Positions 9,225 to 61,607 of a stretch of 64,000 nt of DNA are shown piece by piece. The position numbers and the translations under genes are program-made. The stretch's first letter is position 1. Each line of letters opens with the position of its first letter. The notes beneath the pieces were generated by a model that was not told the DNA's origin, searched no databases, and saw only the letters and a program-made list of their open reading frames with translations. Source of the stretch: Candidatus Omnitrophota bacterium (GTDB lineage: Bacteria > Omnitrophota > Gorgyraeia > B26-G9 > JBDRCZ01); assembly GCA_043821285.1 (NCBI GenBank), contig JBDRCZ010000058.1, positions 18,699 through 82,698 on the forward strand, in the 5' to 3' direction.

Positions 9225-9253
9225 TAAGTATACCATATATTTCGGATTTGTCA
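9225..9253 (-). promoter_or_regulatory. Putative sigma70-like promoter for the giant gene (TTGACA-N17-ATACTT read on the minus strand)
   Basis: Minus-strand reading of 9253-9225 gives TTGACAaatccgaaatatatggtATACTT, about 130 nt upstream of the ATG at 9094 in an AT-rich leader. Confidence 0.25.
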
Positions 9254-9336
9254 AGGGTTGGACGGGAATTTTTTTGAAAAATACATTCTTGGAGGGAGGG
9301 TAAATTTCGTGCGTTATGTGGTTGCGTTTAGGGTTT

Positions 9337-10782
9337 TCATAATGCGTTTGAGACTATCAAGCGCCGCGCCTCAAGACGCAATTTTTTTAACCTGTTTCTA
9401 CTGATAGTCTCTAAATAGCAGCGCACAATCGGCTCGGTCCCGGAAAACCGGTACATGACCCAGCTCTGATCTTGAAGAATAAATTTAAAACCGTCAATTG
9501 TATTTATTTCTTTTACCGGTAGATTGCAAAATTCAACCGGCGGGGCGGTTTTTAGTTTGTTCAGCAGTTTTAATTTTATTTTTTCGGTAAGTGCGATATC
9601 AATCCGGTCATTGTAAAAATATCCATATTTTTTGTAAAGGTTATTTAGTATTTTTCGGATGCTTTGCCCGCGGATGGCAAGCATTTCCGCAATCAATAGA
9701 CACGCAAGTATCCCGTCTTTTTCCGGAACATGCCCATGAATGGAAAGTCCGCCGGATTCTTCTCCGCCAATAAGACACTCTCCCCCGGCTAATACCTCTC
9801 CAATATATTTAAATCCCACCGGGGTTTCTATTACCCGCATGCCATTATACCCGGCAATACCGTCAATCATGGAAGTGGTCGATAAAGTGCGCGCTACGGT
9901 TTTCATCTTTCCCCTGGTTTTAATCAAATGCTCAAATAATAGCGCAAGCACCTGATTTGCGTTGATGTAGGTACCGTCCCTGTCAATTATCCCAAACCGG
10001 TCAGCATCACCATCGCAGGCCAGACCAAGGTGCGCCCGGCTGCGCCTTAGTTCATGGATCATTGTTTTGATATATGCCGGCTTGGGCTCAGGTGGGTTTC
10101 CGCCAAAAGCAGGATTTAAATCATTATTTAAAACTACAATGTTTTTTGTACATTTTTGTAAAATATTGTCAAGATAGCCGCGGCAGGTGCCATGCATGCA
10201 GTCAATAATAATTTTTAGTTTTGCCTTTTTCAGGGCCGCAATATCGACCAATTGCCTCAACCGCTTAAGATAGTCCCGGCTTGCATCAAATACGATAATT
10301 GGACGCGGTTTGTTCTGGGGAGGTGATTTTTGGTTAAAATTTTTAGTGATTATTTTTTCAATCTCATCAGTTGCTTTTTTGGGCGCCGGGCCGCCGTAGG
10401 CCGGAGAAAATTTTATACCGTTATATTCCGGCGGATTATGACTGGCGGTAAAATTTATACCGCCATCTGCATTTTTTTTTATTATCTGATAGGCGATAAC
10501 CGGTGTGGGCACATCCCGGTCAGCTAAAAATACATCAATATTCTCCGCCGCTAAAATTTCCGCGGTAAACCGGGCGCATTCTTTGGAAAGAAATCTGGTA
10601 TCATAGCCAACTACTATTTTCGGCCTTATATTTTCAGCCTGGTTTTTTTCTTTTTTCTGCGCCTTTACATATTTTCCGATTGCCGATATAACTCTTGCCA
10701 CATTTTCAAAGGTAAATTCTTCAGCAATAACTGCCCGCCAGCCGGATGTGCCAAATTTTATCGCCATCTTCTTATCCTTCAT
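9337..10782 (-). CDS. Phosphoglucomutase/phosphomannomutase (alpha-D-phosphohexomutase family)
   Basis: 481-aa ORF with GTSGWRA and the phosphoserine loop TASHNPPEYNGIKF. AAGGA ribosome-binding site upstream. Confidence 0.85.
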   Translation of the reverse strand: MKDKKMAIKFGTSGWRAVIAEEFTFENVARVISAIGKYVKAQKKEKNQAENIRPKIVVGYDTRFLSKECARFTAEILAAENIDVFLADRDVPTPVIAYQIIKKNADGGINFTASHNPPEYNGIKFSPAYGGPAPKKATDEIEKIITKNFNQKSPPQNKPRPIIVFDASRDYLKRLRQLVDIAALKKAKLKIIIDCMHGTCRGYLDNILQKCTKNIVVLNNDLNPAFGGNPPEPKPAYIKTMIHELRRSRAHLGLACDGDADRFGIIDRDGTYINANQVLALLFEHLIKTRGKMKTVARTLSTTSMIDGIAGYNGMRVIETPVGFKYIGEVLAGGECLIGGEESGGLSIHGHVPEKDGILACLLIAEMLAIRGQSIRKILNNLYKKYGYFYNDRIDIALTEKIKLKLLNKLKTAPPVEFCNLPVKEINTIDGFKFILQDQSWVMYRFSGTEPIVRCYLETISRNRLKKLRLEARRLIVSNAL

Positions 10783-39643: not shown

Positions 39644-41110
39644 TTGAAAACGACAATTCACTTTAAACTAACTATTATCCTTATTCTCGCAGTGATACCG
39701 CTGTTTTATCTAAACGGCTATTTCCTCATCCATAATGCCAACAGCCAACTTAAAGAAGAACTGCGTCAACAGGCAATAGACGAAGAAATCTCCACGGCCA
39801 GTATTATAAGCCATGAGAGATTTCTGCATAATTTTAACAACTTAATCACTATTGCCGCAATCATCATATTAATCATCATCGCCAGTATATTATATGCCAA
39901 ATTTACCCGCCCGATATCCGAATTAAATAAAGGAATAACGCGCCTGCTTGCGGGTGATTTTAATTATACTATTCCCATAAAAACTACTGATGAACTTGGG
40001 AACCTGGTAAAAAATTTCAATCTCATGGTCGAGCATCTCAAACAACGATTCGAAGAACAATCTGCGCTTTATGAAGTTACCCAGGGATTAACGGCCATAA
40101 CAGAATTGGATCAGCTATTAAATAAAATCCTGGAAACTGCGATAAAACTGCTAAATGCCGAAAATGGCTCAATCATGTTAATTGACCAAAAAACAAAGAA
40201 CCTGACGATTAAGGCGGCAAAGGGACTTGATATAAATATTATAAAATCAACCCAGCGCAAAATTGGTGAAGGAATTAGCGGGTGGGTGGCTCGGGAAAAT
40301 ACACCGCTTATAATATCGGCAAAATCGGAAAATGCCTTGCCGGTCAGCTTTATTAAAAAAGAAAATATCAAGAATGCAATATGTGTACCTTTAGATATTA
40401 ACGATAAGGTAATCGGTATATTAAATATCAGCAACAAACAAGATGCTGAAAATTTTAATTGGGATCACCTAAATCTTCTCTCTTCCTTTGCCAGTGATGT
40501 GGCAATAAATATTGAAAACGCACGGGTATACCACAAAATACACCGTGATTTTTTAAATACGATTTTCGCACTTGCCGAAGCAATCGATGCGCGTACTCCT
40601 GATATGCACGGCCATTCAGAAAAAGTAACCACCGATGCCTTAAAGATTGCCACTAAACTCAACTTCAATGCGCAGAAACTTGAAGAGCTTCAAATCTCAG
40701 CAATCTTACATGACATCGGCAAAATCGGCATATCTGATAAAATACTATTTAAATCCGATAAATTAACCCCAGCAGAATACGCAATAATAAAAACCCACCC
40801 TGAACAGGGAATAAAAATGCTTGCCCGTGCAAGTCTTTCGGAGAAAATAATTGATTCCGTTCTCCATCATCACGAACGTTATGATGGTCTGGGATATCCT
40901 AAAAGGCTTGCGGGAACAAATATTCCCTTATTTTCCCGGATCATTGCCATTGCGGATAGTTTTATCGCGATGACCTCGAAACGTCCATATAATAAAACAT
41001 TGAACACTGAAGAAGCCTTAGAGGAAATCGTCCACTCATCCGGCACACAATTTGACCCGCATTTAGTAAGAGTCTACTACGATATTAAAATTAATGAAGA
41101 TATCCTGTAA
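39644..41110 (+). CDS. Membrane HAMP-GAF-HD-GYP protein (c-di-GMP phosphodiesterase of the HD-GYP class)
   Basis: Two transmembrane segments, a HAMP-like linker and a GAF domain. HD domain with HDIGK and HHHERYDGLGYP (GYP motif). TTG start per the ORF track. Confidence 0.8.
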   Translation: MKTTIHFKLTIILILAVIPLFYLNGYFLIHNANSQLKEELRQQAIDEEISTASIISHERFLHNFNNLITIAAIIILIIIASILYAKFTRPISELNKGITRLLAGDFNYTIPIKTTDELGNLVKNFNLMVEHLKQRFEEQSALYEVTQGLTAITELDQLLNKILETAIKLLNAENGSIMLIDQKTKNLTIKAAKGLDINIIKSTQRKIGEGISGWVARENTPLIISAKSENALPVSFIKKENIKNAICVPLDINDKVIGILNISNKQDAENFNWDHLNLLSSFASDVAINIENARVYHKIHRDFLNTIFALAEAIDARTPDMHGHSEKVTTDALKIATKLNFNAQKLEELQISAILHDIGKIGISDKILFKSDKLTPAEYAIIKTHPEQGIKMLARASLSEKIIDSVLHHHERYDGLGYPKRLAGTNIPLFSRIIAIADSFIAMTSKRPYNKTLNTEEALEEIVHSSGTQFDPHLVRVYYDIKINEDIL

Positions 41111-41392: not shown

Positions 41393-42898
41393 GTGTGCTT
41401 TGTGCCTGGAAAAATATTTAACTCATTAGGGAAACATCTAATATCCCCGGTTATTTTTACTATCTGCCTTATAATTTCACAACCGCAACAAATCTTAGCG
41501 GTGAATCAGCAGCCAGATACTAACAAACATCTGCGCAATATTGCACCTAATCATTACATTAAACTATCCATTGATTCATCTACGCATCGTAATTATGGGT
41601 TAGCTTATCCAATAACACATACCTTTTCTTTACCTGCAACATTTTCGGCCTTAAAAGCATACAAAAGACATCGGCAAACCCAGCCCTGGAGAGAAATCAC
41701 AGAGAAGACATCCCGTGATTTTTTTAATGGTATTGAAGCGGTACGATTTGACTATTTAAATAATATAGCTTATATTTCGCTATCCTTTGATTGCTTAAGT
41801 GATGAAATTCACTTAAAGATACTTGACTCTTCTGGCAAGGCGGTCAACGCAACCTATCAGGGAATTTCCGACTATTATGACAATCGCGATGCGGCAATCG
41901 TAGCTACAGCTGATGATTGGGATGGCTATGAACCTAATAATACGGGATTTAAGATGGCCTGCGATGCATTTACTCAGAGAAAAATTTGGCTCACTGTAGG
42001 TATAACCACCCATGGACAAGTAAATTTGAAAGTAGTTCCCCATCAGTTCTGGTCCGCGGTAATCTGGGATGAAGTGCAATCAAAAGTAGATGCCGGCTAC
42101 ATTGAAGTAGCTTCTCATTCCCTGACGCATCCTGGACCTGGGTGTGGCCATTTCTATAAATACACCGGTCCCCATACTGGTACTGATAACCAGAGGTTTG
42201 TACTTGAAGACAAGCGTGCAAATAATGGAATGGGTTTTCCTTCAAGTGACAAAAGCTATCTTGTGGGTCTGCGGGTTAAAAATACTACTGACAAGAGTTC
42301 CGGAATAATAACATCGAATACTAACTCAACAATTACCTGTGCTGCCGGGCTATCTGGCGGAACCGGTAATTGTTGGAATAAAGGTGACACCTATAGTATT
42401 TCGCTTTACGATTCTGAAATTGGGACATCAAAAGATGAAATCATTACAAACCTCAATCTGCCATATGCCCAGGGAAGCAACGAATATGTTTATGCCTGGT
42501 TCGAGCCTTGCTGCTACTCTGACCACACCGTACTCACTAAGCTTGGACAATTTAAATATTTAGTTGACCGGAACTCAATCCCCGGGGCACAAACTTTTGC
42601 TCCTTGGAGCCAAACACCTAAAATCTTTGGGCCAACTGGCTGCTCCTTATGGATAGAAAACAGCGCACTGGCAGCGGCAAATAAGAAATTCGACAATATG
42701 GTGTCTCGGGGAAATATTTATCACATATGCATGCATCCCCGGGATGTTGATTGGTCGGACGACTCATGGATATATGATCATTTAAACTATATTCACGGAA
42801 GAACAAACTTATGGTATGTTGGTCTCGGGCATTTATATTTATATCATTATGTCAATAAACTCAACAAAATTACCGTCGAAAAGATAGCAGGGGAGTAG
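41393..42898 (+). CDS. Secreted polysaccharide-deacetylase-like (CE4/NodB-homology) protein
   Basis: Signal peptide. TADDWDG (like TFDDG) and SHSLTHP (H-S/T-xxHP) NodB motifs. The likely true start is GTG 41402, 9 nt after AAAGAGG. The CE4 assignment is tentative. Confidence 0.45.
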   Translation: MCFVPGKIFNSLGKHLISPVIFTICLIISQPQQILAVNQQPDTNKHLRNIAPNHYIKLSIDSSTHRNYGLAYPITHTFSLPATFSALKAYKRHRQTQPWREITEKTSRDFFNGIEAVRFDYLNNIAYISLSFDCLSDEIHLKILDSSGKAVNATYQGISDYYDNRDAAIVATADDWDGYEPNNTGFKMACDAFTQRKIWLTVGITTHGQVNLKVVPHQFWSAVIWDEVQSKVDAGYIEVASHSLTHPGPGCGHFYKYTGPHTGTDNQRFVLEDKRANNGMGFPSSDKSYLVGLRVKNTTDKSSGIITSNTNSTITCAAGLSGGTGNCWNKGDTYSISLYDSEIGTSKDEIITNLNLPYAQGSNEYVYAWFEPCCYSDHTVLTKLGQFKYLVDRNSIPGAQTFAPWSQTPKIFGPTGCSLWIENSALAAANKKFDNMVSRGNIYHICMHPRDVDWSDDSWIYDHLNYIHGRTNLWYVGLGHLYLYHYVNKLNKITVEKIAGE

Positions 42899-44327
42899 TG
42901 TTTATGGGTTTTATCATCGGACGAAATCCTAATCTCTCAACCTTGCCCCAACTCTTAACACCTTGCAATTTTTTAAAAAATGCCAGGATCCGCGAAAAAA
43001 TAACAATCTGACGATACCCGAGGTATTCCAATAAAGAAAAGACTAACATTCTTAAAAACACCCATTTGTTTCTGTATGTTTTAAAGACTACTTCTTCGAT
43101 AATAATCGCACAAACTGTCAACAACATTGTTATCCCTGCCGTGGAAAAGAGAAAAATCATCACGAAATTATAATTAATCACTCCTATTAACAATCCGGTA
43201 ATCATCGTTATAACCCCAGCACATTCCATAATCGGCGCAAACATTTCTCCGGCCGCGTAAAAGGGAAATGAAATAAGTCCTACGGCTTTATATCGCGGGT
43301 TAAAAAACATTATCTTGTGTCTTTGAATTGTATCAATCAGCCCGCGATGCCAGCGTTCTCGCTGTTTGACTAATGATGCTATGTTTGGCGGCGCCTCGGT
43401 CCAGGCAATCGGGTCGGAGACAAATATTACACGACAGCGCCGGCCTTTTTCCCGAAGCTTGCGGTGCATGCGCACGGTTAGTTCTATATCTTCGCCTACG
43501 GTATTTATCTCATAACCACCACACGCAACTACCTGGTCCTTTCTAAAGAATCCAAACGCCCCGGAAATAATCAAATCTCCGCCGAATCTATTCCAGCCCA
43601 GCTTACCAAACAAAAATATCCGCAAGTATTCGATTGCCTGAACTGCCGGGAAAATATCTGTGGGAAAACGCGTACGCATTATTTCTCCCTTCTCGATGTT
43701 ACAACCATTGGCAATGCGTATTGTCCCGCATATTGCAGCAGCGTCCTTTTCGGTCAACATCGCCCTGACCAAAGGCTGCAGCGCACCTTTTTCAATAATC
43801 GTATCCGCATCGACCGCTAAAAAATATCGGCTGGCCGCCACACTTATTCCGACATTTAAGGCATCTCCTTTACCGCCGTTTTGTTTATCGATTAAAATCA
43901 GATTCGGATAAATTTTCGAACGATAACTTTCTTTTATCGGCTGGGTTGCCTTAAAATTGTGTTCGGGCAATTGAATTTTTACCATTTGAAACGTGCTTAC
44001 CAGATATGGTAAAGTGGCATCCGCTGAGCCGTCATTTACAACAATTACTTCAAACTTAGGATAAGAAAGATTTAAAACTGCCTGGACGCTGACTATAATA
44101 TTCGCGGCTTCATTATATGCCGGGATAATAATACTTACTGGCGGGCAATCTATAGGATTCAAAACTTGTTTATCATCTTTGCGGCTTTGTTTATATCGGC
44201 AATATAACTGCGGTATTGAAAGCAGCAAGAGCAAAGCATAGAACGAATTAATCGCCAGAAAATAGCCCAATAAAACATTATTTAGCAAATATACTATATC
44301 ACGCATATCGTTTTTTGTTAGGCTCAA
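42870..44327 (-). CDS. Processive family-2 glycosyltransferase (PgaC / IcaA / cellulose-synthase-like)
   Basis: N-terminal transmembrane segment, IIIPAYNE ... VNDGSAD ... DADT ... QRERWHRG (QxxRW), C-terminal transmembrane bundle. Start TTGA-overlaps or lies 18 nt after the RHS gene stop. Confidence 0.75.
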   Translation of the reverse strand: MSLTKNDMRDIVYLLNNVLLGYFLAINSFYALLLLLSIPQLYCRYKQSRKDDKQVLNPIDCPPVSIIIPAYNEAANIIVSVQAVLNLSYPKFEVIVVNDGSADATLPYLVSTFQMVKIQLPEHNFKATQPIKESYRSKIYPNLILIDKQNGGKGDALNVGISVAASRYFLAVDADTIIEKGALQPLVRAMLTEKDAAAICGTIRIANGCNIEKGEIMRTRFPTDIFPAVQAIEYLRIFLFGKLGWNRFGGDLIISGAFGFFRKDQVVACGGYEINTVGEDIELTVRMHRKLREKGRRCRVIFVSDPIAWTEAPPNIASLVKQRERWHRGLIDTIQRHKIMFFNPRYKAVGLISFPFYAAGEMFAPIMECAGVITMITGLLIGVINYNFVMIFLFSTAGITMLLTVCAIIIEEVVFKTYRNKWVFLRMLVFSLLEYLGYRQIVIFSRILAFFKKLQGVKSWGKVERLGFRPMIKPINTTPLLSFRR

Positions 44328-47300
44328 AAGGGAAGTGGTTCAAACATTATTTTATCCACATACACCGCGCCCGCGGACATAGGCGACCATTCAAAAACAA
44401 AAGATATATTTTTCAGGCACCTTAAGTCAACTCCCTGAACCGCAAAATCTCTCAAAGGAATTCTCACCTTTTCCCACTGGGTTGAAGACTTTAAATACTG
44501 CTCTAAGTTTATGTATTTCCGTGTAGTACCATCATCCAGATACACATTAGGGGTTTCGCTCCCGTGAACCCTTTTGAATTTGAAAGAGAGAACCGGATAC
44601 TCACAAACATCAATATTATTCAAATCTACTATCCATCCCGCCCATGATTCTTTATCTCTTGAAGAGAAAATATCCGCATAATGTAAAAGCGAGCCCAATT
44701 GATCATAAAATGCGTTAATCCGGGCATTATTTGTCTTAAATGTCTTACAATCCCGGCCCCAGACATTCCGGCCAGCTCCGTCAGAACAGTTAGCAGCAAT
44801 TAACGGCACCACATCCATTTCAAAAGTAATATCGTCAATAAATATAACGCCGGTACTGTTTTTGAACCGATTTTCCAGGGTAAAATTAATATTCTCCAGA
44901 GAGGAAAAATCTTCTATTGTGCTAAAGCCCGCCAGAGGAATTGAAACCTTTTGCCACTCATTGGTAATGCCCATGGTTAAATAAGAACCAACCAAAATCT
45001 TATCTTCATGTCCATGCTTATCCATTAACCCCACCTGCACAACCGGGTTATCTATTTCACCCTTTATCCAGAAACAAAGAGTTCGATAAGCCGAGAGATC
45101 AATATTACGTAATAGCTTATAGTATCCGGCATAATCATCTTTCTCAGAAACATCGTAAGTCAATTTTAAACATGGCCCGCGTTCCGAATCATGTTCTATG
45201 GCCGTAGATATTTTGCTGTGAAAATCATTTTTCTGAAATAATCCCGCATCCGGGCCAAGGCCATTGGCATACAGGCTATGCTCAAAACCGGCTACCAACA
45301 AGGCGTCTTTTTTTGCCACCGGCTTTTCTGGAGGGTGTTTATCTTTTTCAATTATGAAATTATCAATGTAATACGTTGCTCCTTTCTTATTTTTGCCATA
45401 AACTAATTTCATGTAACCCTGCGCGTCCCAGTCTGCCATAACCATCTCTTGAATAACAAAGTTATCTCTTCCAACAATCGGGGGGTAGTTTTGCAACAGA
45501 GCATAGAGATTAAAACCGGCGGTATGCCATTTATTATCCACGATTACATTTTCAATCTGTCCTATCCGTTCCATATTCAGGCGCTTATATTCTTTTACTG
45601 CATCCGTAAACTCAATCTCATACCATCGCTCATCCATCTTAACGAGAAAATTAATATTTACCTGTTTTGGTATTTTATAGTCAAACCGAACAGTTGGGTA
45701 TTCTTTGGCATTAAACGGGAGGTCAAAGATTGTACTGGCAAAGTTACCGCCATGGTTTTTATTTGTTAACTTCAGGCAATAACCGCTGTCTAAATCTTTC
45801 CTTTGCTCCAATGTTAAATCAGCGCCAACATCACTATTGCGGTTAGTCCACTGTTCTATGCTCTGTTCAAATGTATTGGCAATCAAAAATTTCTCTTTTG
45901 AATTGATGCTTTTCTTCGATAACCCTAACTGATGTGCTGCGGGTTTATCAGCTGCGTATCTTGACCGGGATAGAGCTGTCCCTAAGTTTATGCCTTCAAA
46001 CACGGCAAAATAGGCATTGCCATGCGGCAGTCCGTGTAAATATGCGCAAAGTTCATTTGCCGCTTTATCAAAAAATGCCGGTAAATACTCCCATTGTTTT
46101 GCCTGAGAGTTGAACGCGTAGATTCCTAATTTTTCTGTGCTTAAATCCTTGAAACAATCCTCTGGAAGCTTTATTCCCAAAGTAGCATCTCTGGTAAAGC
46201 TCTCCCCCGCGGGTCTCATCTCATAGACTTTTCCTACAAGAGCACCCTCCTCGGGGAAAGGCAAGGTTTCATCCTCTAAAGGTTTAATTGTAATTATCCG
46301 AAACGGCTCTCTTAACGCGTGTTCCGGCACATCAAGCACAACCATCCCGTCAGTACTTATGGCTTTCCCCCCATAAATATTTGGGATTACCCGGCCAACC
46401 TCAACGGTCACGCGGTCCTCTGCAACAGCACCATGAATATTCGTTACAAGCAGCCGTATTGTATATACCCCCGCTAAATCTATAGGGTGGTCTTGCTGAT
46501 ACTCATCACCATAGGTATAATTTTTTAACCCGGTATCAAAAGTCGCCAGATTACCATAAATTGTCTGGTCGGATGAATCATCCAACATAACCGGAGCAGT
46601 ATCTTTTAGTTGTGGAATAGTAGATGTGGTAATATTCACCCATTCTCTTGGATTATCACCCTGTCCATAGTCTACACGATACTCTCTAAATGCCTCACCA
46701 TAGGCGACGCCGAAGATAGGAACTTTAGCGCGCACAAGTGCGTCCGCAAAAGGCACAGATATTTTTGCAATTAAGCCATTTGTTTTTTGGACAGCTTTAT
46801 GCTGCTGCGGACGTTTTTCTATACATTGAATAAACGTCGGCTCTCCACAAGATACATCTCTGTTTTGATCTATCGTAATATTCGACATAGGTTCATCAAC
46901 CGGTCCTTCATAATAATCCGGTTCAGGAATATTCTGTGCTATTTCCCATACCGCATAGGTCATCACTGTCCAAGACGCAGCAAATATTCCCCCAAAAATG
47001 TCGCCAGAAGCCAAAAATCCGCCCACAAAACTTGCTGCAACGTCATAATAAAATCTGTTTTCATCAAATAATCCACTTGGATCTGTGAAATTAACCGGAT
47101 TATTTTTTACATAACTATAAAAATTCATTCCCCCCTCGAACCCAATTGGATCAGGGGATAAAAACCTTCCGATTGCCGGGCTATAATATCTCGCCCGGTA
47201 ATAATAAAGCCCGGCCTCAGGCTCATATTCTCTTCCCGTAAACAAGTAGGGGTTGCCAATGCTACTTACCTTATTAGGAACGCCATAGGCATCGTAGGAA

Positions 47301-50300
47301 AAGGATTCTACAACATTCTCTGATTTATCTATAATATTAGTCACACTTCCCATTCCATCATAGCAGTAGAAATAATCCGTACCATTTCTTTTCATCACCA
47401 GTATCTCATCTATTCCTCGACCATAAACATAAGTTGCCTGGACCACACCTCTTTTATCCTTCTCCAGAATAACCCTGCTTTGGTCGTGTATATACTCGGT
47501 TATTGCTGCCGGGGTTATCTTAGAGGTTCTTCTTCCTAATGGATCATATACATATTTAATTATCTCCCCCGGCGTATTTACGCGGATGAGCTGATTTTCA
47601 AAATCATAGGCAAAGGTTGTTATTCCGGAAACCGCAGCAACTTCTATAAGGTTGCCATTGTTATCATAGGTATAAACATCCTCATCTATGTTTGTATATT
47701 GATTTAACATGTTTGTGGTGTATGTAGTGGTATCGCCATTTTTTGTTAAGGTGAGCCGGTTGCCAGCCTGATCATGGGTATATTCTGCTAATTCGCCGTC
47801 CGGCGATATTACTTTACTAAGCTGATAAATATTATCATAAACATACTCGGTCAAACCCTCTGGAGTAATCATGGTCAGTCTGTTACCAACAGCGTCATAA
47901 GTATAGGCAAAAGATGAAATAATTTCTGTGTTAGATTTTCTATTGACCAAAAACCCCAGACGTCCAAGAAAATCATAACTAAACTCAGTATAAACATTAT
48001 GTTGCAAATCCTTTCGGATAACCCGGCTCATGGCATCATAAGTATACGCGGCAATGGTTTGGCTTGAAGAATTTATCTGTATAAGTCTATTCACATCATC
48101 ATAAACATATTCCAGTTTTGTTCCATCGGGATAAACAAGCTGCGTGAGGTTTCCGGTTTTATCATAGCGATAACGTATTTTATCTTTTCCCGGACAGGTT
48201 ACCTTACTCAGCCTATTTGCCCGGTCATACTTAAATCTGAGCACACCGTTTCTGCCTTTTATCCTAATTAAATTCCCATAGTTATCATAGCTAAATACAT
48301 CTTTACGGCCATCAGGAAATATTTTTTCTCTGAGCTTACCTCTGGGGGTATAGCAAAATTTAATCTTCTGGCCATTTCTATCTGTCTTTCGCACTAGATT
48401 GCCTGCATCGTCATAGCGGTAACGTTCTCTACTCCCATCCGGATAAATCACGGTAATAAGATTACCATTACTATCATATGCAAAACTTGTTGTATTTCCC
48501 CGAGGGGTAGTAATACTGGATATTTGATTATATTGCGCTTCATAGGTCAACACAGTAACATTCCCCTGAGCGTCAGTTTTGGTTAAAATATTCCCACGGT
48601 TATCATAAGTAAAAAATATCTGGTTGCCATTAGCATCTCTGGTGCTTACTAAATTAGAATTATTATCATAGACACGTTCACTTATATTGCCTAACGTATC
48701 TTCTTTACAAATAATCAATCCATTATTGTTATAGATATAGCGTGTTTGCCTTCCCATGTTATCTGTCACTTTTTTTTCATGGGAAAGTTCACTATATTCG
48801 TAAAAAAGCCGGTTATTGCCTTCTTCATTGCTATATTCTTTAAGACGGCCATCTTCATATATTGTAAAAAACGTCTGCCGGCCGCAGGGATCACTAATCA
48901 GTATAAGATTGTGTTTTTGATCATAGGCATACGTGGTCTTAAATCCGCCAATATCCGTTACCGCGGATAGATTCCCCTCTTGGTCATATTCATACCATAC
49001 CCTTTGCCCAAATGGTCCTTCTATAGATGTAACTCGATTATTTTCATCATAATAAAAAAAAGTTATTTGGCCTGAGGTGTCCGTGATTGTTTTGAGGCGA
49101 TTATCCGGATCATATAAAAAAACTAATGCATTTCCGTTTCGATCTTCTATACGTGTTAATTTGCCTTGGCGGTTAAAATAAAAGACTTTTCCGTATTTTT
49201 CTGTTAACAGATAGGTGCCGTCAGCATTTTTTGTGAGTATTCGAAAATCACCTTTAGAAGACTCATATTCTCCCGGGGCCTTTGGTTTAAAAAAACTGCC
49301 GGTGCCGTTAGCATTAAATATCTCCACCAGCCCATCGGAGGTTTCTACAACATGCATGAGATAAGTATGCGTCCATCCGTATCCCAAGTATTTATCATAA
49401 CCGGAATACAAAGTATAAACCCTTTCTATTTGCACTGAGATACCTTGGGCCGGCATACTAAAGTCTATTTGGCGAACTAATTGTCTATCCGGGGAAGGAT
49501 TTGGCATTAAGGTAATCACTAAAGAACTATCGCGGATTAGCCGGCCATGGAAATCCGTAAGCTCAATATCTACCGTATAATCCTTGCCAGGATTAAGGTC
49601 CGTGGTATCCCATTGATAAAAAACCGGATAATCCATGGTTAAATTTTGCACACCGCTGTCATACCCATGGGAATTAGAGGTTATTCTTATTGAACCGCTG
49701 GTAATATTCGTTAGGTCAAAATTTCCTCTAACTTCAATCTTGATCATTTTACCGGTAGTATATCTATTGCCGGTCCTGGCAAATAAGCGGGCAACCACAT
49801 CTAAAACTATGGGTTCAGAATAAACCAAGGCACGATTATTATAACCATCGGCAACATAGAGCCATGTACCGTCACCATAAACAGAAATTGGCCCAGAAAG
49901 GCTACTAGCGGTAACCCCGTTAAAATTGCCGGCATTTGTGGAAAAATCCAGCTGTCCAAGAACCGCATCCGCGGACTGATTATTCTCCGTGGGGATCTGG
50001 GCATAGAGCAATATTCGATTATTGGCCTGATCCGCAACAAACAAGGATTCTCCGTTGCTATAAACAGCAAACGGCACATAAAAACTACTTGCACTTACAC
50101 CTCCATTATTTATTACATTCGAAGAAAAATTTGGCTGGCCTAAAACTATGTCCGCGGGTTGAAAATTATTCGTAGGAATTTGATTATGAATCAGCACTCT
50201 GTGATTGCCTTGGTCAGCGATATACACACGTATCCCATCACTAAAAACACGGGCCACTCCCCAAAGACTCTGGCTCGTTACCCCGCCGTTATTTGGGAGA

Positions 50301-51016
50301 TTACTGGTAAAATCCGGCTGGCCAAGAACAATATCCGCCTCCGCAAAATTCTCCGTGGGGATGCTATTATAGATTAACACCCGATTATTCGCAGCATCTG
50401 TAACATACAAGCACACTCCGTCGCTATGCACATCAGTAGGTGCTAATAGACTCTGGCTCGTTACCCCGCCGTTATTTGGGAGATTACTGGTAAAATCCGG
50501 CTGGCCAAGAACAATATCTGCCTCCGCAAAATTCTCCGTGGGGATGCTATTATAGATTAAGACTCGATGATTAAAATGGTCCGCAACATACAAACGTTCT
50601 CCGTCACTATATGCGGCCATTGGGCCCCAGAGGCTCTGCGAACTAATATTGCCATTATTGGCAAGATTGCTCGTAAAGTCAGGCTGTCCAATAACAACAT
50701 CCGCCGGCTGATTATTAGTTGCCGGGATATTATTATAGATTAGCACCCGGTTATTAAAATAGTCCGCGACATACAAGTGCACTCCGTCTGTAGAAACAGT
50801 ACCTGGGCGCGACAAGCTACTTGCACTTAACCCTCCATAGTTACTATCATTAGTCGTAAAATCCAACTGTCCCAACACAAGTTGAGCTTCTTGAGGCTCT
50901 TCAAACGCAAAACTTGATAGGGATGGTGGACTAAGGCATACAACAATCCCGGCCACAATACTTGTAAAAATCATCAAAACTTTCATTCCCGCTTCTTTTA
51001 TGCGATGAATATACAT
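44324..51016 (-). CDS. 2230-aa secreted NHL-repeat plus RHS/YD-repeat protein with an approximately 840-aa C-terminal extension (PKD-like and carbohydrate-binding-like domains) after the RHS core
   Basis: Signal peptide. Six NHL-type repeats ([14 protein letters not shown]). Dozens of YD repeats (YxYDxxGNL). RHS core [43 protein letters not shown] at about aa 1350-1390. Then a PKD-like segment [23 protein letters not shown] and repeated jelly-roll-like segments. AAGGAGAG ribosome-binding site 6 nt before the ATG. Confidence 0.85.
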   Translation of the reverse strand: [2230 protein letters not shown]

Positions 51017-51051: not shown

Positions 51052-51390
51052 TACTTAACCGCAGATTATCACAGATATTAAACATATATTTCCCTGAAGA
51101 AAAAAGCAAAACACCACGGATTAACACTGAGTTATCCGTGGCTGAAAAAATCTAAAATTCTGTTTCAGGTTCAAAAACTAATCAGATTAAATTTAATCAT
51201 CAGCCAAATAACTATGGCCGCGACTATCCCGAGGATAAGAAAAAATTTAAATATCTTTCCGATAATATTCAAAACAACAATTAATACGACTATTGCAGCA
51301 AAACAAAAAGATTTTTTGTCCCGCTTGATTCGTAGTGGTTACAATCAATTCTTTTATGGATTCTTGACACTACCTCGTAATAATTCAGCG

Positions 51391-53391
51391 TTAAAACTTA
51401 CAGGTAAATGTACCAGTTATCCTCCGTCCTACACTCGAAGTATCCATGGGATAATCATCATATCCTTTTTTAAACAGGTTAAACACGGCCAGGGAAACTT
51501 CGGCCGGATTTTCCCAGAGGAAGAATTTATACCCTAAGCGCAGGTTCGTAATAATATATTTCGATGTCTTTCCTCCACCGATTGTTGTGCCGCGCGGGTC
51601 AGGTATGTATCCGCACCAGGTATATGTGGGTGTCCAAAATGTCGAACCGCGGTAAAGTGCACTAATATTTGCGGAAAAACCATTGTCAAAATATGCTCTT
51701 AACTGAGCATTTACCATGTTCTGCGGTGTGCCGGCAACAAGCGCGTATGTATTTGCATCTCCTTCATCCTCCCATTGCTCAAGATTAGTATGGTTAATCA
51801 ACACGCTAAGCCAATTATTAAATAAATAACGCATTTCTATCTCTGTGCCGATTTGTGCCGCATCTGCTATATTTCGATATTCTTCGGTCCAATGAATATA
51901 GGGAGCAGTGGGAATTATAGAAATCGGTGAAACCTTATAATAAATCGGGTCGATTAGTTTTGTATAAAACACATTCGCCTCTACTTGAAAATTGTTCGTC
52001 CAGTCCCCTTTATAACCCAGTTCGAGTGTTTCTACCTGTTCTGGCTTATTGTCTTCATATCCATAAACATCATAGTAAGCTGTAGCCAAATACAAGTAGT
52101 TTTCCATAAAATCAGGGTTACGAAAGGCACTACTGTACGAAAAACGAAAGTGATGCTTTTGCCAAGGAGAATAAAGTAGGGCCAAACGATGAGAAAGACT
52201 ATCACCGGCGTTCGGGTGGTGGTCATATCGCAATCCGGTATTAAGACTAAGGTTATCCTGAAATTTATAGGTATTATCCACAAATATTCCTCTTAAATCA
52301 TGTCTGCGTTTACCACCCACCATCGTAGTATTGATATTATGCGTAGTAAAATTACCTCCCCAAACTAAAATATCTTGCTCCAACAGCTCTAAGGTGTGCT
52401 GAAATTCAATTATTTTCGTCCCCATAGTAATATCTGCAATTGGCACACCAAGAGCATCTGTGCTCATCGCTTGACTACGTAAATAGGCACGTAATATCAT
52501 ATCCGGCTCTTTAGACGCGTAAGTAACTGATGCAAGATAAGCCTCGTCATTTCCTAAATCATAGGGCCCGGCGCCTGGACTAAAAGAATACCACTGCTTT
52601 CGATCAATATAACTTCCAGAAAGGATTATCTCAGAATTATCATCAATCGCCCAGTCAATATTGGCATTTCCCCTTAAGTATCTATTTATGGGATTATTAA
52701 GGTAAGAAACAAAACCATCACTCCAATTGTCTCTATCATCATGGGATAAGGAAATACGATAATTGATTTTATCTTTTACTGAGCCACCATAGAGATAAGT
52801 ACCGATGCGTGTTTCTAGTTCTCCTCCAGTAAGGGAGAGCATACTTCCTTGTGTATCGTTAGGTTTTTTGGTGATAAGATTTACTATGCCAAACATAGCA
52901 TCCGGACCGTACAAAGATGACCCAGGTCCACGTAGTATTTCTATTCTTTCAATTTCTTCTAACGCTATCGGGAGATAATTAAACATGGGCATGGTAGTCA
53001 CTTCATACACCCACGGTATTCCATCAATTAAAAGTATTGCTTTCCGGGGTGGCATTATATTAAATCCCCTGATACCGCCTACTTCCATATTCCCCGCGGT
53101 GGCATATCCCATATGCACCCCAGGAACCATTCTTAATACCTCACCAAGCAGCGTTGCTCCAGATTGTTTAATATCTTCCGCCGTAATAACAGTCATTGCT
53201 GCCGGGGCTTCGGTTATCGCCTGTTCTCTTTTTGCCGCAGTAATTACCGTGGGGATCTCCATAAACAACATTGCCTCAGGAGAAACATACTCTTCAATCT
53301 GTGCCGATACGTTAGGAACTATCGGACTAGATAATAATACTAATATCAGCGATACAATGATAAATAGACTTTTTCTTATAATATTAACCAT
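51391..53391 (-). CDS. TonB-dependent outer-membrane receptor
   Basis: Plug domain (TVITAEDIKQSGATLLGEVLRMVPGV), a 22-strand-barrel-sized body, C-terminal ...TFTCKF ending in Phe. Start moved to MVNIIRK (53391), which has AAGGAGGGGG upstream. Confidence 0.8.
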   Translation of the reverse strand: MVNIIRKSLFIIVSLILVLLSSPIVPNVSAQIEEYVSPEAMLFMEIPTVITAAKREQAITEAPAAMTVITAEDIKQSGATLLGEVLRMVPGVHMGYATAGNMEVGGIRGFNIMPPRKAILLIDGIPWVYEVTTMPMFNYLPIALEEIERIEILRGPGSSLYGPDAMFGIVNLITKKPNDTQGSMLSLTGGELETRIGTYLYGGSVKDKINYRISLSHDDRDNWSDGFVSYLNNPINRYLRGNANIDWAIDDNSEIILSGSYIDRKQWYSFSPGAGPYDLGNDEAYLASVTYASKEPDMILRAYLRSQAMSTDALGVPIADITMGTKIIEFQHTLELLEQDILVWGGNFTTHNINTTMVGGKRRHDLRGIFVDNTYKFQDNLSLNTGLRYDHHPNAGDSLSHRLALLYSPWQKHHFRFSYSSAFRNPDFMENYLYLATAYYDVYGYEDNKPEQVETLELGYKGDWTNNFQVEANVFYTKLIDPIYYKVSPISIIPTAPYIHWTEEYRNIADAAQIGTEIEMRYLFNNWLSVLINHTNLEQWEDEGDANTYALVAGTPQNMVNAQLRAYFDNGFSANISALYRGSTFWTPTYTWCGYIPDPRGTTIGGGKTSKYIITNLRLGYKFFLWENPAEVSLAVFNLFKKGYDDYPMDTSSVGRRITGTFTCKF

Positions 53392-53623
53392 TTCCCCCTC
53401 CTTATTTTTGCGGAGCAAAAAATATAATCCGTCTCGGCAGATGGTCTATTATCCAATTGTCTATTTTCAAAAATCTTCATTCCTCTCTGAATAATCCCAC
53501 GTTGCTTTTCGGTTTTTTATCATCCTTTTTACCTATATTCCTCCCTTTTTTTAGCTTATTAGTTTTCTGATATAATCTTTTTATATTTGATAACATCCTA
53601 CGCTGAAAATCATACAATGTCAA

Positions 53624-53694
53624 ATAAAAAAATTCCTGCGGAATCTTTTTATCCATTTAAAAACCTCTCGTGTTCAAACCTTCCCTATAACAAT
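53624..53694 (+). repeat. Intergenic mosaic repeat family, copy F
   Basis: AAAAAATTCCTGCGGAATCTTTTTATCCATTTAAAAACCTCTCGTGTTCAAACCTTCCCTAT. Confidence 0.65.
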
Positions 53695-54074
53695 GAATTA
53701 AATATATCAAACTATACCCCAAGTCCCAAGTTAGCCACAGATTGAAATCTTATTGTTCTTTGTTGAAAGAATAGCGGTTGATCTTGAGATTAGAGCTTGA
53801 CGGAAAGACTTACAGGATAGAAACAGAAATAATCTAAAAAAGAATGATCTTTGAGGCTAACTGCGGAACTTGAGTTAACAGTAAACGCAGCATATAAGAC
53901 ATAGTATAACAGAGTGAAAGCAAATAAAAACCAGTAAGAACCACAGATTACTCAGATTATACAGATATGAAAAGAATTTTAATTTTATCTGAGTTATCCG
54001 TGCTATCTGCGGCCAAAAAATCTATTGACTCTTACGTACACATAAGAAAATTTTTTATTTGTCTCGCACTCTGT

Positions 54075-57000
54075 TTAGTTGGCCGGGGCAAAAGTGAAAT
54101 AATTGACATTGAAACCACTGACGTCCACAACTAATCTTACGCTATGGTCTCCGGAACTTATATTTACGGTGGGACCATCCGCCCACCCCCAGATCTGCCA
54201 GCCGCCGGTAGCCGGAAGGTTAATCCTGCCAGTTACATTTACGCCATCTATTTCAATATGACACTGACCATCGGAAATTCCCGCATAGCGGATTCTGATT
54301 GTATATCTTCCTCCTTCACTTGCACGGAGTTGATAATTTAGCCATTCACCCGCATAGATCCAGCCAACATTATAGCCGCCTTCCGAGCATACCTCAATAT
54401 CCACTCCTTGGTTTCGATATTGACCGCCGGAATTGACTGCATCAGTGTCGTGATAGTCTCTCTCCGCGGCAGCTACGTGCCCGCTATCGTAGTCCTCAGC
54501 TTCAAATTTGATAACTGCTTTTGCCCCAGGATAACCGTAGACTTCAAATTCCGGGATCCTTACGGCCCAGTCACCGATAAAATTAGGCACCACTGCTCTG
54601 ATTCTCACATAGCGCAGAGTTTTCGGAGAACTATAGCGCTCGGTATTCACCGGGATATCACTATTGTTGTTTATGTGAAACTCCTCTGACCATGGTCCCT
54701 GTAGAGAAGGCGCTGATTCAATATAAAACTCCTTGGTGTTAAAATATGTTGGCTCTCCGCTAGTTGAAGCATGTTTTACCACATAACCCGTTACTTTTGT
54801 ATCTGAACCTAAATCATAAGTTAAGATGTGATCACCATGTGTTGAAATACTATTATGCAGACAGCACCATTTTGTGGAAACATCTCCATCCTTACAATAC
54901 AGACCCCGTTGATTTTCATCATTGTGACCACATTCTATATAAGTAGCCGCATCCAGAGCTAAGTTCCGCTCAAAGCTGAAGTAGTTAATGTTAAATCCTG
55001 AGGAATCCATAATTAATTTTACAATATGATCACCCGCCGTCAATTCTATATCTCCGGCGCTTTTCCATGCCCATGTCTGCCAAGCACCTGTAGCCGGAAG
55101 AGTAATAATTCCGGTTACATCTATGCCATCTATTTCAATATGACACTGCCCATTGGAAACTGCTGCATAGCGGATGTATATCTGGTATTTACCACTAGTG
55201 TCTAAGCGGAATTTTAGCCACTCCCCGGCACTTATCCAGCCAACATTATATCCGCTTTCAGAACAGGTTTCAATATCTACATCCTCTTTCCGGTACTGTC
55301 CCCCGGAATTGCCGGATGTAATATCGAAATAATCCGTACCTTGCGCAGCATTGGCTCCGGCATCATAATCTTCCGCTTCAAACTTAATAGCGCCTTTAAT
55401 CCCTTTATACCCCCAAATCTCAATCTCAGGAATTCTCACAGCCCAGTCCCCGGCATAATTGGGATCAGTAATCCTGATTCTGATATACTGTAAATTCTTC
55501 GGAGTGTCATAAATAAGGGTATTCTGAGATTCCTGATTAGTATTTACCACGTAAAATTCCTGGGTCCAGGGACCTTGCAGCGAAGGTGCAGATTCGATAT
55601 AGAATTTTTCTGTATTAAAAATTGTTGGTTCACCCCCGGTTGAAGAATGTTTAATGATGTAGCCGGTCAAGGTACAAGTCGTGCCTAAATCAAAGCGCAA
55701 AGTATGATCCCCTGATGTCCAAAACCCATTATGCAAACAGCACCATTTTGTAGAGAGGTTACCATCTTTTGCCGCTAACCCATATTGCCCTGGTTCATTA
55801 TGCCCACATTCAACATAAGTAACTGCATCTAACGCGAGGTTCTGTCCGGTTAGTCCACTAATTCCCAAGGAGAATGTATAAGTCCCAGTTCCAGCTGCAC
55901 TATAGACATTAATCCGTATTCTCCACTGTCCAGCCATATCTGCGGTATAAATTATATTCTCAACAACGTTCCCGTCTAAAGCAGCTGATGCTTTTAAGAC
56001 TGCTGTGGGATCATAGAGGTAAAGATCATAGTCATAGTAAGGTGGCGGGGTCATGGATATTGTGATATCCTGACCAGCAGAGACATTAAACGCATAGTAA
56101 TCATTAGGATCTATCCCTTTATCCAGCCAACCCGAATAATTCCCTGGTGAAATAAATGTTGCAGCAGCAAAATCATTACCAGCATCGCTACCGGTGCCGG
56201 CATCATTTTGCCCGGGGGGACCAGCAGAAATTTCTCCCGCAGGATAACGTAAATCTACGGTTTGCTCAAATGCTGTATAAAGGTCTCCGGAGTTGCCATA
56301 GGGATTACCATTATCTTTCCAATATTCAAGCGCATATCCATCCCATGCACTGGCTGCCTGCTGATTATTATCGTACACAAACCAGGTCATACAGATGATA
56401 TCGTGGTTTCCCGCGGTCTGGTTCCAGTTATTAACATCCGCAAACGCATCGCGTAAAAACTGTGCGGTCTGGGCTTCCTCACCTGAATTACCTGGCGCAG
56501 CATACCTGTTCCATTCCGTCATATAAATTGGTTTATTGGAAAATCCTTTACTGTCAATAATTGCAATCTGACTGGCATACACATTGTGAAAATCAGCAAC
56601 CGAACCTCCGTAGGAATGGATTGCAAAACCATCAACTTCACCAGGGGTAAGATAATCCAACATTTGCGAAAGATACTCTGTCCCGCTCATCCATCGCTCT
56701 CCCCCTACTCCTCCAGGGCTAACTGGCGCTAATAAAACAACATGCTCACCAGGCGCACCTACAAGCGCACTATTATGAATTGCGCTGCGCACATTTTTGT
56801 AGATCGCGGCCATTTCTGCCGGCGGAATTTTACGATTTGGCCATTGACTGCCTGTCCCCATCAGCAAGTTTTGCTCATTACCTACCACCCAGATATGGCT
56901 TTGATTATAAAGCACATTTACCGCCTCTGATACCACCTTTGCCGGCCATGCGGAATAATTGGGGTCACTTGGGGCAGGAACCGTATCTCCCCAGGTATAA

Positions 57001-57311
57001 TCTACGCGGGTAATTATCGTCATATTCTTATTATTGTAGAGCTCCTGATAAAGACCTGTAAAATAACCTGCCGCCCACCACCAGCCAGAATTTGTCAGCA
57101 CTGTCTCTACATCCCATGCCGAGCACGCCGGCACATCTAATAAACTTGCCGGGGCATCATCCACCGGCTGTCCTTCTGTATACCCCCACCAATGAATACC
57201 ATACAGATACCGTGAGTCTTCTGCTAATACATCGTTAGAGAAAACTACTATCGAACTAAATACCCCTAACACCAAACACAACATTATTCTTGAAAATCTC
57301 ACACATATCAC
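54075..57311 (-). CDS. Secreted multidomain glycoside hydrolase: GH-A-clan TIM-barrel catalytic domain, PPC domain, then (F5/8 type C - CBM6) x2
   Basis: Signal peptide. VGNEQN (acid/base NE) and MTEWN (nucleophile E) GH-A signatures. Pre-peptidase C-terminal-like segment DPNDYYAFNVSAGQ. Two discoidin-like (KWCCLHN) and two CBM6-like (IKFEAEDYD) modules. Confidence 0.65.
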   Translation of the reverse strand: MICVRFSRIMLCLVLGVFSSIVVFSNDVLAEDSRYLYGIHWWGYTEGQPVDDAPASLLDVPACSAWDVETVLTNSGWWWAAGYFTGLYQELYNNKNMTIITRVDYTWGDTVPAPSDPNYSAWPAKVVSEAVNVLYNQSHIWVVGNEQNLLMGTGSQWPNRKIPPAEMAAIYKNVRSAIHNSALVGAPGEHVVLLAPVSPGGVGGERWMSGTEYLSQMLDYLTPGEVDGFAIHSYGGSVADFHNVYASQIAIIDSKGFSNKPIYMTEWNRYAAPGNSGEEAQTAQFLRDAFADVNNWNQTAGNHDIICMTWFVYDNNQQAASAWDGYALEYWKDNGNPYGNSGDLYTAFEQTVDLRYPAGEISAGPPGQNDAGTGSDAGNDFAAATFISPGNYSGWLDKGIDPNDYYAFNVSAGQDITISMTPPPYYDYDLYLYDPTAVLKASAALDGNVVENIIYTADMAGQWRIRINVYSAAGTGTYTFSLGISGLTGQNLALDAVTYVECGHNEPGQYGLAAKDGNLSTKWCCLHNGFWTSGDHTLRFDLGTTCTLTGYIIKHSSTGGEPTIFNTEKFYIESAPSLQGPWTQEFYVVNTNQESQNTLIYDTPKNLQYIRIRITDPNYAGDWAVRIPEIEIWGYKGIKGAIKFEAEDYDAGANAAQGTDYFDITSGNSGGQYRKEDVDIETCSESGYNVGWISAGEWLKFRLDTSGKYQIYIRYAAVSNGQCHIEIDGIDVTGIITLPATGAWQTWAWKSAGDIELTAGDHIVKLIMDSSGFNINYFSFERNLALDAATYIECGHNDENQRGLYCKDGDVSTKWCCLHNSISTHGDHILTYDLGSDTKVTGYVVKHASTSGEPTYFNTKEFYIESAPSLQGPWSEEFHINNNSDIPVNTERYSSPKTLRYVRIRAVVPNFIGDWAVRIPEFEVYGYPGAKAVIKFEAEDYDSGHVAAAERDYHDTDAVNSGGQYRNQGVDIEVCSEGGYNVGWIYAGEWLNYQLRASEGGRYTIRIRYAGISDGQCHIEIDGVNVTGRINLPATGGWQIWGWADGPTVNISSGDHSVRLVVDVSGFNVNYFTFAPAN
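54078..55880. repeat. Tandem duplication (about 900 bp x2) encoding the two F5/8-CBM6 units inside the GH gene
   Basis: Protein segments at aa 478-770 and 771-1078 are about 65% identical. Confidence 0.7.
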
Positions 57312-57445
57312 CTCTTTTTATTATTCGCAATACGCGGTACGCAATACCCCGAAAAACCGCCTTACAACAACGGGGCACACGCATCACGAATTAATATCTG
57401 TGATCATCCCCGCCACAAATCGTCGGCGGGCAGGTGTGTATAACA

Positions 57446-61438: not shown

Positions 61439-61607
61439 CTTCCCTCTCCTCCTTATTTTTTGCTTCGCAAAAAATAGAGCAATTGATAATTGACAGTTCC
61501 TGCCTGCAGGCAGGGAAAATAAAATGTGCCTTCTATTGCTCAGTTTTTTATTTCCAAAGCAGTTCTCTACACTATATACTATATCCTATATACGACATAC
61601 GATTAAA

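Follow-up and report, generated by a model that had tools for sequence, protein, structure and literature searches.

Here we describe a two-gene locus in a stretch of 64,000 nucleotides (nt) of Candidatus Omnitrophota DNA (contig JBDRCZ010000058.1, positions 18,699 to 82,698; the whole stretch is hereafter called the window). An open reading frame (ORF) for a giant RHS/YD-repeat protein of 2230 amino acids (aa) is followed on the same strand by an ORF of 485 aa for a processive family 2 glycosyltransferase (GT2). Both had been recognised in a first-pass annotation made from the sequence alone, and both are borne out by the ORFs and their domain matches. The main finding is that the RHS cage of the large protein is joined to a conserved C-terminal module of about 835 aa, which also occurs with other N-terminal passengers and recurrently lies next to genes for synthase-type GT2s. 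As judged from gene content, the constant module, and not the RHS cage, is the functional partner of the neighbouring processive GT2. With a probability of roughly one half, we propose that the module binds the glycan made by its partner synthase and that the RHS cage is thus tethered to the polysaccharide layer of the same cell. All analyses were performed in silico, and the functional statements throughout derive from sequence, predicted folds and gene order.

The large ORF runs without interruption from an ATG start, as given in the ORF list, and its base composition is even along the whole length (coordinates of all features are given in Table 1). Behind the signal peptide, the blades of the NHL propeller form six repeats with an exact period of 61 aa (aa 49-400), the motifs GQPDFTSN and NxRVLIY recurring every 61 aa. 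Pfam yielded no match to PAAR, SpvB or VgrG in the N-terminus, and therefore none of these delivery determinants of RHS toxins, nor did the spacer between propeller and plug match any Pfam family. From the plug to the core the protein spans ~800 aa, which is long enough for a closed shell of the kind found in RHS/YD toxins. The solved cages nearest to the RHS part are 7q97 (E 6e-74) and 8h8a, and the solved cage of a teneurin-like protein (TLP), 9pt5, is matched more weakly (E 3e-42). The RHS-associated core, from which the first-pass annotation had quoted aa 1289-1316, carries the DPxGL end together with the predicted autoprotease residues R1276, D1289 and D1312 (R/D/D), which we take to be catalytic by their offsets from YenC2 and TccC3.

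The tail had been described as an extension of ~840 aa beginning at aa 1390. The core ends at aa 1316, and the tail after DPSGL comprises 914 aa, of which 838 aa reach from the PTFIQ motif (aa 1393) to the C-terminus. In order, it consists of a variable linker (76 aa), the PTFIQ motif, an FN3-like domain, a ZU5 domain and three jelly rolls resembling carbohydrate-binding modules (CBMs) of the types CBM4/11/30. The domain search proposed for this region gave CBM_11 and CBM30 above their cut-offs, and no toxin family was matched anywhere in the 2230-aa protein with either Pfam or NCBIfam. Both CBM matches lie just above the Pfam gathering score, and glycan binding is putative. The second and third jelly rolls ('b' and 'c') are homologous to each other (hhalign 99.7%), and a profile of the whole module, when compared with PDB sequences, matched CBM30 and CBM11 only.

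The ZU5 domain deserves separate mention. In polymorphic toxins, ZU5 typically lies N-terminal to the RHS repeats and acts as a catalytic autopeptidase, and it is also present in surface proteins acting on extracellular polymers (Zhang et al. 2012, PMC3482391). Unlike the toxin domain, the ZU5 of the module follows the core, and the HFS-type motif with its His and Ser/Cys residues is replaced, by AYFAV in the window protein and by (H/Y)YALMAS in its homologues. Because this autocleavage motif is replaced, the domain is probably non-cleaving and not a peptidase.

Searches with the 914-aa tail returned homologues that are 37-42% identical over ~91% of its length and have unrelated N-termini; in one fragment among them, the tail is preceded by the same RHS core. 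When 1.84 billion representatives were searched with a profile, 596 proteins matched at E<1e-30. The full module is present in 94 of the sequences examined (representatives of clusters at 50% identity) and retains 31-43% identity between phyla over 835 aa. It is preceded by an RHS shell and core in 25 of these 94 representatives, the RHS cage being the commonest of many N-terminal passengers. Others are Laminin_G_3, FG-GAP with PKD, PASTA with Glucodextran_B, TIG, a bare lipoprotein signal, ZU5 with MopE-type Cys repeats, DUF4214 (by sequence reading) and GH17 (by JGI's name only). An NHL region like that of the window protein was seen in none of the module proteins examined. Because the module occurs with so many other extracellular passengers, the tail is, on this comparison, not the cargo of the cage, and the cage is rather an add-on to a glycan-associated module. 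As a long array of FN3-like, ZU5 and three CBM-like domains, the post-core region does not resemble a toxin, in support of the earlier statement that it is not an encapsulated cargo.

With one genome taken per GTDB species, 22 module loci were obtained, 13 of which encode RHS fusions of 1888-2386 aa. The RHS-module loci are spread over about ten phyla in all and include Gammaproteobacteria, Nitrospinae, Nitrospirota, Desulfobacterium, Planctomycetota, Armatimonadota, Verrucomicrobia, Acidobacteriota and Clostridia. The DUF6531 plug is present in every fusion scanned. Five of the fusions (loci L011, L012, L015, L016 and L021) begin with a type I dockerin, and a cohesin-like domain is encoded by a downstream gene in L011 (12569-13501, Pfam Cohesin) and, by sequence similarity, in L012 (6703-9075), L013 (9229-10521) and L015 (14221-15441), which implies a putative dockerin-cohesin tether for the cage end of these fusions. 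We found no published description of the RHS-module architecture.

In 21 of 25 loci the module gene has a processive GT2 gene, assigned by Pfam Glyco_trans_2_3 where scanned, no further than 4.4 kb away, and in 11 the two overlap or are at most 30 nt apart. The comparison of gene order in related genomes, as suggested at the outset, thus reveals an RHS-GT2 synteny that is conserved across about ten phyla. Among the four loci that lack a GT2, a contig end truncates one, and the module is only partial in two others. The partner enzymes are diverse: at the related loci they are at most 24% identical to the window GT2, and they comprise MdoH/OpgH-like (L005, which holds the closest relative of the window protein), CelA-like (L001, L011 and L015) and PgaC-like types (window and L014). 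When the accessory genes of L001-L003 were compared with one another and with the window genes, only the GT2s gave a match to the window (21-24% identity).

In one clade, the module is accompanied by a conserved trio (L001, L006-L010, L008, L020 and L023), consisting of a ~300-aa protein, a second protein of 228 aa that has a hydrophobic stretch at its C-terminus, and a CelA-like GT2 of 507-568 aa. The ~300-aa protein has no Pfam or NCBIfam match and appears GH17-like by eye; if this reading holds, it suggests a beta-1,3-glucan-type product. In addition, the nearest homologues of the window GT2 (49% and 46% identity) have neither an RHS nor a module gene as neighbour, which rules out simple vertical inheritance of a module-GT2 pair. 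Because the closest homologues of the window GT2 lack the module, the recurrent adjacency points to functional recruitment and not to shared descent of one operon. As read from these comparisons, the module is associated with synthase-type GT2s in general, in a pairing that has been re-formed repeatedly.

The window GT2 shows the GT-A catalytic motifs and flanking transmembrane (TM) helices of a processive membrane enzyme and matches Glyco_tranf_2_3 (77 bits) and Glyco_trans_2_3 (47 bits) in Pfam. Over the QxxRW/TM region (aa 240-383) it resembles BcsA. Its best named relative is PgaC/IcaA, although the score of 130.5 bits against TIGR03937 remains far from the equivalog cut-off of 422.3, and no PgaA/B/D-like genes are present among the scanned window neighbours, the CE4-like neighbour not resembling PgaB. 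The domain scan covered the genes located between 32.7 kb and 64 kb as well as a giant ORF at the window start. With its QRERW motif the enzyme is, as had been noted, not an immunity protein; no immunity-like gene follows the RHS ORF, and since the GT2 gene overlaps the RHS stop, no space is left for a small ORF.

This overlap amounts to 4 nt (ttTTGa) when the GT2 starts at TTG, in accordance with the first-pass annotation, which had given a gap of 18 nt as the alternative. The alternative ATG at position 44306, which corresponds to the NCBI call (478 aa), lies 17 nt past the RHS stop. No Shine-Dalgarno sequence was found before the GT2 gene and no terminator-like site at the RHS-GT2 junction, and a gap of 374 nt with a hairpin lies upstream of the RHS gene. 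For these reasons, together with the 4-nt overlap or 17-nt gap, the two genes are probably a co-transcribed and translationally coupled two-gene unit, in agreement with the initial assignment of the GT2 to the RHS unit. The hairpin is a plausible terminator of the TonB-receptor gene, and RHS-GT2 would therefore be a unit of its own.

We envisage that the GT2 would polymerise and extrude a glycan, probably a beta-linked gluco- or GlcNAc-type chain, that the three CBM-like domains of the module would bind the extruded chain, and that the fused passenger, here the NHL propeller and the closed RHS cage, would thereby be attached to the polysaccharide layer of the cell itself. The logic of this proposal matches that of Bap1/RbmC/RbmA of V. 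cholerae, CdrA of P. aeruginosa and SLH domains, namely a secreted beta-propeller and lectin-/FN3-like protein held on a self-made glycan. There is, however, no sequence relationship to these matrix adhesins or SLH proteins, and in the present case a fixed five-domain unit of 835 aa, carrying many different passengers, is encoded next to the synthase gene.

Several observations weigh against tethering. The CBM assignments depend on scores close to the Pfam threshold and on similarity of fold, and protein-protein contacts are mediated by jelly rolls as well. Given the diversity of the partner GT2s, a single common ligand is not obvious, and at 4 of the 25 loci no GT2 was seen. Moreover, the MdoH-like partner in L005 would suggest a periplasmic glucan and not a surface glycan, and what the sequence shows of the localisation is Sec export. 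Finally, a purely structural role leaves the conservation of the R/D/D triad unexplained; metazoan teneurins, which are structural, have lost the autoprotease triad.

The junction between core and module lends itself to a different interpretation. Following the proposal to check the aspartyl-protease residues, we found the R/D/D triad retained in 12 of 12 fusions (one indel being allowed for in L011). The linkers of these fusions are not alignable and vary from 64 to 175 aa, and 7 of the 12 contain a hydrophobic stretch (KD19 >= 1.4). Hence, the locus might primarily encode a toxin: the cage would cleave itself after L1316 and enclose the hydrophobic, Gly-rich segment of 64-175 aa as membrane-damaging cargo, and the module would anchor or target the loaded cage on the glycan coat of the producer or on a prey glycan. 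The segment has the usual size of a cargo and is hypervariable in sequence and length between conserved flanks, and the RHS part is nearest to toxin cages of type VI secretion systems (T6SS). The C-terminal domains (CTDs) of TLPs average about 15 kDa, and that of BiTLP, a Bacillus teneurin-like protein, is likewise hydrophobic with a predicted TM region and permeabilises E. coli (PMC13018210).

We nevertheless regard a primary toxin function as unlikely. The next gene is not immunity-like and is a GT2 with a 4-nt overlap, no toxin family is matched, and several linkers look like plain spacers, with Gly runs in L021, L022 and L015, a Cys-rich linker in L002 and an acidic, Pro-rich one in L008. 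Between two Clostridia proteins that are almost identical, the differences are mainly Gly-rich indels, and the module is also found without any cage. In addition, a cargo that is covalently continuous with an external module of 835 aa would be unprecedented among bacterial toxins. The initial account is thus supported in the coupling to the GT2 and in the lack of an immunity gene at the locus, whereas its assertion that the protein is not a toxin is unproven in view of the conserved triad and the cargo-sized variable linker.

Beyond the linker, a [C/D/E]-P-T-F-[I/V]-Q motif with a following basic cluster is located 825-842 aa from the C-terminus in all fusions compared. The module protein of L003 is devoid of a PTFIQ-type motif; just upstream in this locus (8651-10047), two small secreted proteins end in GGGGDFFFIQ followed by Lys/Arg. 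We know of no family that contains the PTFIQ motif, for which a function as docking strand or processing signal is possible.

The combination of a secreted NHL propeller with a YD shell is shared with TLPs and with metazoan teneurins. TLPs are defined by the order FN-plug, NHL and YD-shell (Raoelijaona et al. 2026, PMC13018210); 96% of them carry an N-terminal TIP domain, and their CTD is small, polymorphic and accompanied by an immunity gene (PMC13018210). The window protein has the order NHL, spacer and DUF6531 plug, the latter abutting the shell, and its score for TEN_YD-shell is 26.8 bits compared with a cut-off of 50. Because the domain order differs and this score lies below the cut-off, the window protein is, by domain comparison, not a TLP as defined in 2026. 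The description of the TLP CTD does not apply to the 914-aa tail and could apply to the 76-aa linker, at a locus without an immunity gene; the post-core segment resembles the CTD of BiTLP in being hydrophobic. With metazoan teneurins the window protein has in common the large folded domains after the shell, which are necessarily outside it. In contrast to the teneurins, the RHS-module family has kept the autoprotease triad.

Alternatively, the module could be a periplasmic or otherwise extracytoplasmic co-subunit of the synthase, analogous to BcsB, which guides the nascent chain or is needed for GT2 activity, with the cage and the other N-terminal domains as accessories. The adjacency to the GT2 is tight across subfamilies, often with an overlap or at most 30 nt, and the minimal forms of the module protein are lipoproteins or signal-anchored (P0013 and the Nitrospirales protein of 901 aa), which would place them at the membrane by the synthase. 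BcsB likewise joins jelly-roll carbohydrate-binding domains to a membrane anchor (4HG6), and the MdoH-like partner in L005 would fit a periplasmic site. We consider this explanation quite improbable. The closest homologues of the window GT2 are found in loci without the module, which indicates that the synthase does not need it, and the passengers (dockerin, Laminin_G, FG-GAP and PKD) are typical extracellular adhesion and display domains. Moreover, no sequence or fold similarity of the module to BcsB was found.

More generally, the locus shares with the Bcs cellulose, Pga poly-N-acetylglucosamine and OpgH glucan systems a processive QxxRW GT2 with TM helices that is coupled to an extracytoplasmic protein rich in jelly rolls, and, as in synthase-dependent exopolysaccharide systems, a CE4-like gene and a gene for a HAMP-GAF-HD protein lie nearby in the window. 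It differs from these systems in that the window GT2 scores far below every equivalog cut-off, in that no homologues of BcsB, PgaA, PgaB or PgaD were found, in that the partner protein carries an RHS cage, and in that the GT2 subfamily varies between loci.

It is very improbable that the protein is a canonical polymorphic RHS toxin whose toxic part, at the very C-terminal end, has escaped recognition, and for which the gene downstream confers immunity. The plug and core are indeed canonical, and the Rhs/YD toxins (the T6SS proteins P. laumondii Rhs1, 7Q97, and V. parahaemolyticus RhsP, 8H8A, as well as TcC) share with the window protein the plug, the YD shell, the core ending in DPxGL and the R/D/D residues; beyond this, the sole argument in favour is that bacterial RHS proteins are, as a general rule, toxins. 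The window protein has a Sec signal peptide and an NHL propeller instead of PAAR/VgrG or TcB. Whereas the post-core regions of the toxins are polymorphic and 100-300 aa long, its own 914 aa are mostly conserved across phyla, and variability is confined to the 76-aa linker, so that the short polymorphic domain of a toxin is missing. It has neither a toxin domain match nor an immunity gene, and its operon partner is a polysaccharide synthase. The CBM30-like C-terminus, conserved at the level given above, and the downstream multi-pass GT2 with intact catalytic motifs led us to reject this candidate; by inference from solved cages, 914 aa would furthermore not fit a cage of ~800 aa.

That two genes were joined by mis-assembly or by read-through can practically be dismissed: apart from the fact that the 2230-aa protein had no 100% match in the searched protein collection, no positive sign of it was found, the same continuous fusion was called independently in at least 13 genomes (25 protein clusters), the composition is uniform across the ORF, and the neighbouring genes match the NCBI record exactly.

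Two variants of the module arrangement were observed. In Nitrospirales the module is a separate protein of 901-1000 aa, and its gene is preceded by a lipoprotein-like ORF of 250 aa with similarity to the plug region and RHS repeats of the window protein (Table 1), apparently the remnant of a collapsed cage. In L024 (4228-10528), from Candidatus Omnitrophota, an ORF of 778 aa has PTFIQ at a distance of 78 aa from its end, and the FN3-ZU5 portion stands at the start of the following ORF (1324 aa; family P0004, with Y_Y_Y and Big_13). This locus, which may represent a split or frameshifted variant, showed no GT2 over ~6.5 kb of upstream and 8 kb of downstream sequence.

The convergent gene next to the GT2 had been annotated as a CE4-like deacetylase. 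A CE4 identity is plausible: the profile of the protein gave weak matches in the PDB to 6go1 (E 1.6e-3) and 4hd5 (E about 2e-3) at the HxxxH motif, and the protein contains TADDWDG and HSLTHP, with TADDWDG and HSxTH being invariant in its family. It has no Pfam or NCBIfam match and is identical (100%) to an NCBI protein of Candidatus Omnitrophota, and a few of its homologues carry PF01522. Its link to the RHS locus does not extend beyond the window, as the CE4-like gene, like the TonB receptor and the other window neighbours, is absent from the related loci (25 searched), where only the GT2 recurs. Between HSxTH and YDSEI (aa ~250-340), the protein contains a Gly/Ser/Thr-rich insertion of ~90 aa that is absent from the family consensus, and many of its relatives end in sorting domains of the type IX secretion system.

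Just upstream of the CE4-like gene and on the same strand, a HAMP-GAF-HD signalling protein is encoded (PF13487 HD_5, HD-GYP-type), which could be a cyclic di-GMP phosphodiesterase regulating polysaccharide production. Upstream of the RHS gene, the same strand carries a run of secretome genes, which encode, besides the TonB-dependent receptor, a protein of 1078 aa that combines CBM6/CBM35 and F5/8-C with a glycosyl-hydrolase core, a subtilase of family S8 bearing FG-GAP, TIG and dockerin, and a C25 peptidase with TIG and dockerin. At the other end of the window, a giant ORF encodes an unusually large multi-AAA+ protein, with two units of ClpB-like AAA_2 and ClpB_D2-small and an AAA_5/AAA unit near aa 1985. 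Giant genes have been reported for Omnitrophota (bioRxiv 10.1101/2023.11.21.568195).

Table 1. Features of the RHS-GT2 locus and its surroundings. Positions refer to the window, except for the 250-aa ORFs, for which the related locus is named.
Feature	Position	Strand	Remarks
Giant ORF, at least 3031 aa	2..9094	-	runs off the window start
HAMP-GAF-HD signalling protein	39644..41110	+	
Secreted CE4-like (divergent polysaccharide deacetylase-like) ORF, 501 aa	41393..42898	+	convergent; 3' end overlaps GT2 by 29 nt
Membrane-embedded processive GT2 synthase, 485 aa	42870..44327	-	motifs NDGS, DAD, GED, QRERW
RHS ORF, 2230 aa	44324..51016	-	
CBM-like jelly roll 'c', ~aa 2066-2230, protein C-terminus	44327..44821	-	Pfam CBM30 aa 2138-2206, 36.6 bits vs 27; PDB profile matches 2c24, 1wmx E 5e-7
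CBM-like jelly roll 'b', ~aa 1905-2065	44822..45304	-	Pfam CBM_11 aa 1929-2047, 30.7 bits vs 27; PDB profile match 1v0a
CBM-like jelly roll 'a', ~aa 1710-1890	45347..45889	-	most conserved portion of the module
ZU5-fold domain, ~aa 1550-1674	45995..46369	-	
FN3/Ig-like beta-sandwich, ~aa 1410-1545	46382..46789	-	
Conserved boundary motif G-E-P-T-F-I-Q, aa 1391-1397	46826..46846	-	followed by basic cluster
Variable linker, aa 1317-1390	46847..47068	-	candidate encapsulated segment; Gly-rich hydrophobic aa 1326-1360, KD19 maximum 1.47
RHS-associated core, aa 1241-1316	47069..47296	-	TIGR03696 (Rhs_assc_core) 96.5 bits; ends DPSGL at L1316, predicted self-cleavage site
RHS/YD-repeat shell, aa 573-1240	47297..49300	-	RHS_repeat 229 bits (10 stretches); YD_repeat_2x 195 bits
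DUF6531 N-terminal plug of RHS cage, aa 515-572	49301..49474	-	Pfam PF20148, 29.1 bits vs cut-off 24.1
Spacer between propeller and plug, ~115 aa	49475..49816	-	all-beta by eye; sequence only
Six-bladed NHL-type beta-propeller, aa 40-400	49817..50899	-	Pfam NHL E 5e-8
Start codon and Sec-type signal peptide, aa 1-37 (...SFA|FEE)	50906..51016	-	upstream AAGGAG Shine-Dalgarno; hydrophobic aa 8-38; sequence reading
Hairpin (ccacggat...atccgtgg, 12-nt loop) and T-run	51100..51141	-	direct reading; absent from the scan results owing to the loop length; within 374-nt gap upstream of RHS gene
Secretome genes upstream of RHS gene	51391..63926	-	
250-aa ORF, L006	8948-9703		
250-aa ORF, L007	2629-3375		
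250-aa ORF, L009	8660-9406		
250-aa ORF, L010	8870-9628		
250-aa ORF, L025	3-854		

To our knowledge, bacterial RHS/YD cages have hitherto been viewed solely as enclosures of small polymorphic toxins, and the animal teneurin is the sole well-studied cage known to us that is followed by large external domains. The long and conserved post-core region described here inverts the rule of a conserved N-terminus and a variable C-terminus. As a tentative extension that we hold to be doubtful, the GT2, its glycan and the PTFIQ-led FN3-ZU5-3xCBM module could constitute a general, unrecognised platform for surface display and anchoring, a quarter of its passengers being closed RHS cages with an autoprotease. 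The polypeptide would exit such a cage after a short enclosed hydrophobic segment, in a topology hitherto known from metazoan teneurins alone, a cage anchored on the glycan could release a membrane-active peptide on contact, and PTFIQ would serve as the docking or processing signal.

If tethering of the cage to the cell's own glycan is true, it would be the first non-toxin, or double, role for bacterial RHS cages, and it would add a new glycan-associated module of 835 aa with roughly 100 or more protein clusters. It would likewise help to find out what several uncharacterised subfamilies of synthase GT2s produce in uncultured phyla, among them Omnitrophota and Nitrospirota. The family moreover offers a bacterial model for the exit of a polypeptide from an RHS shell.

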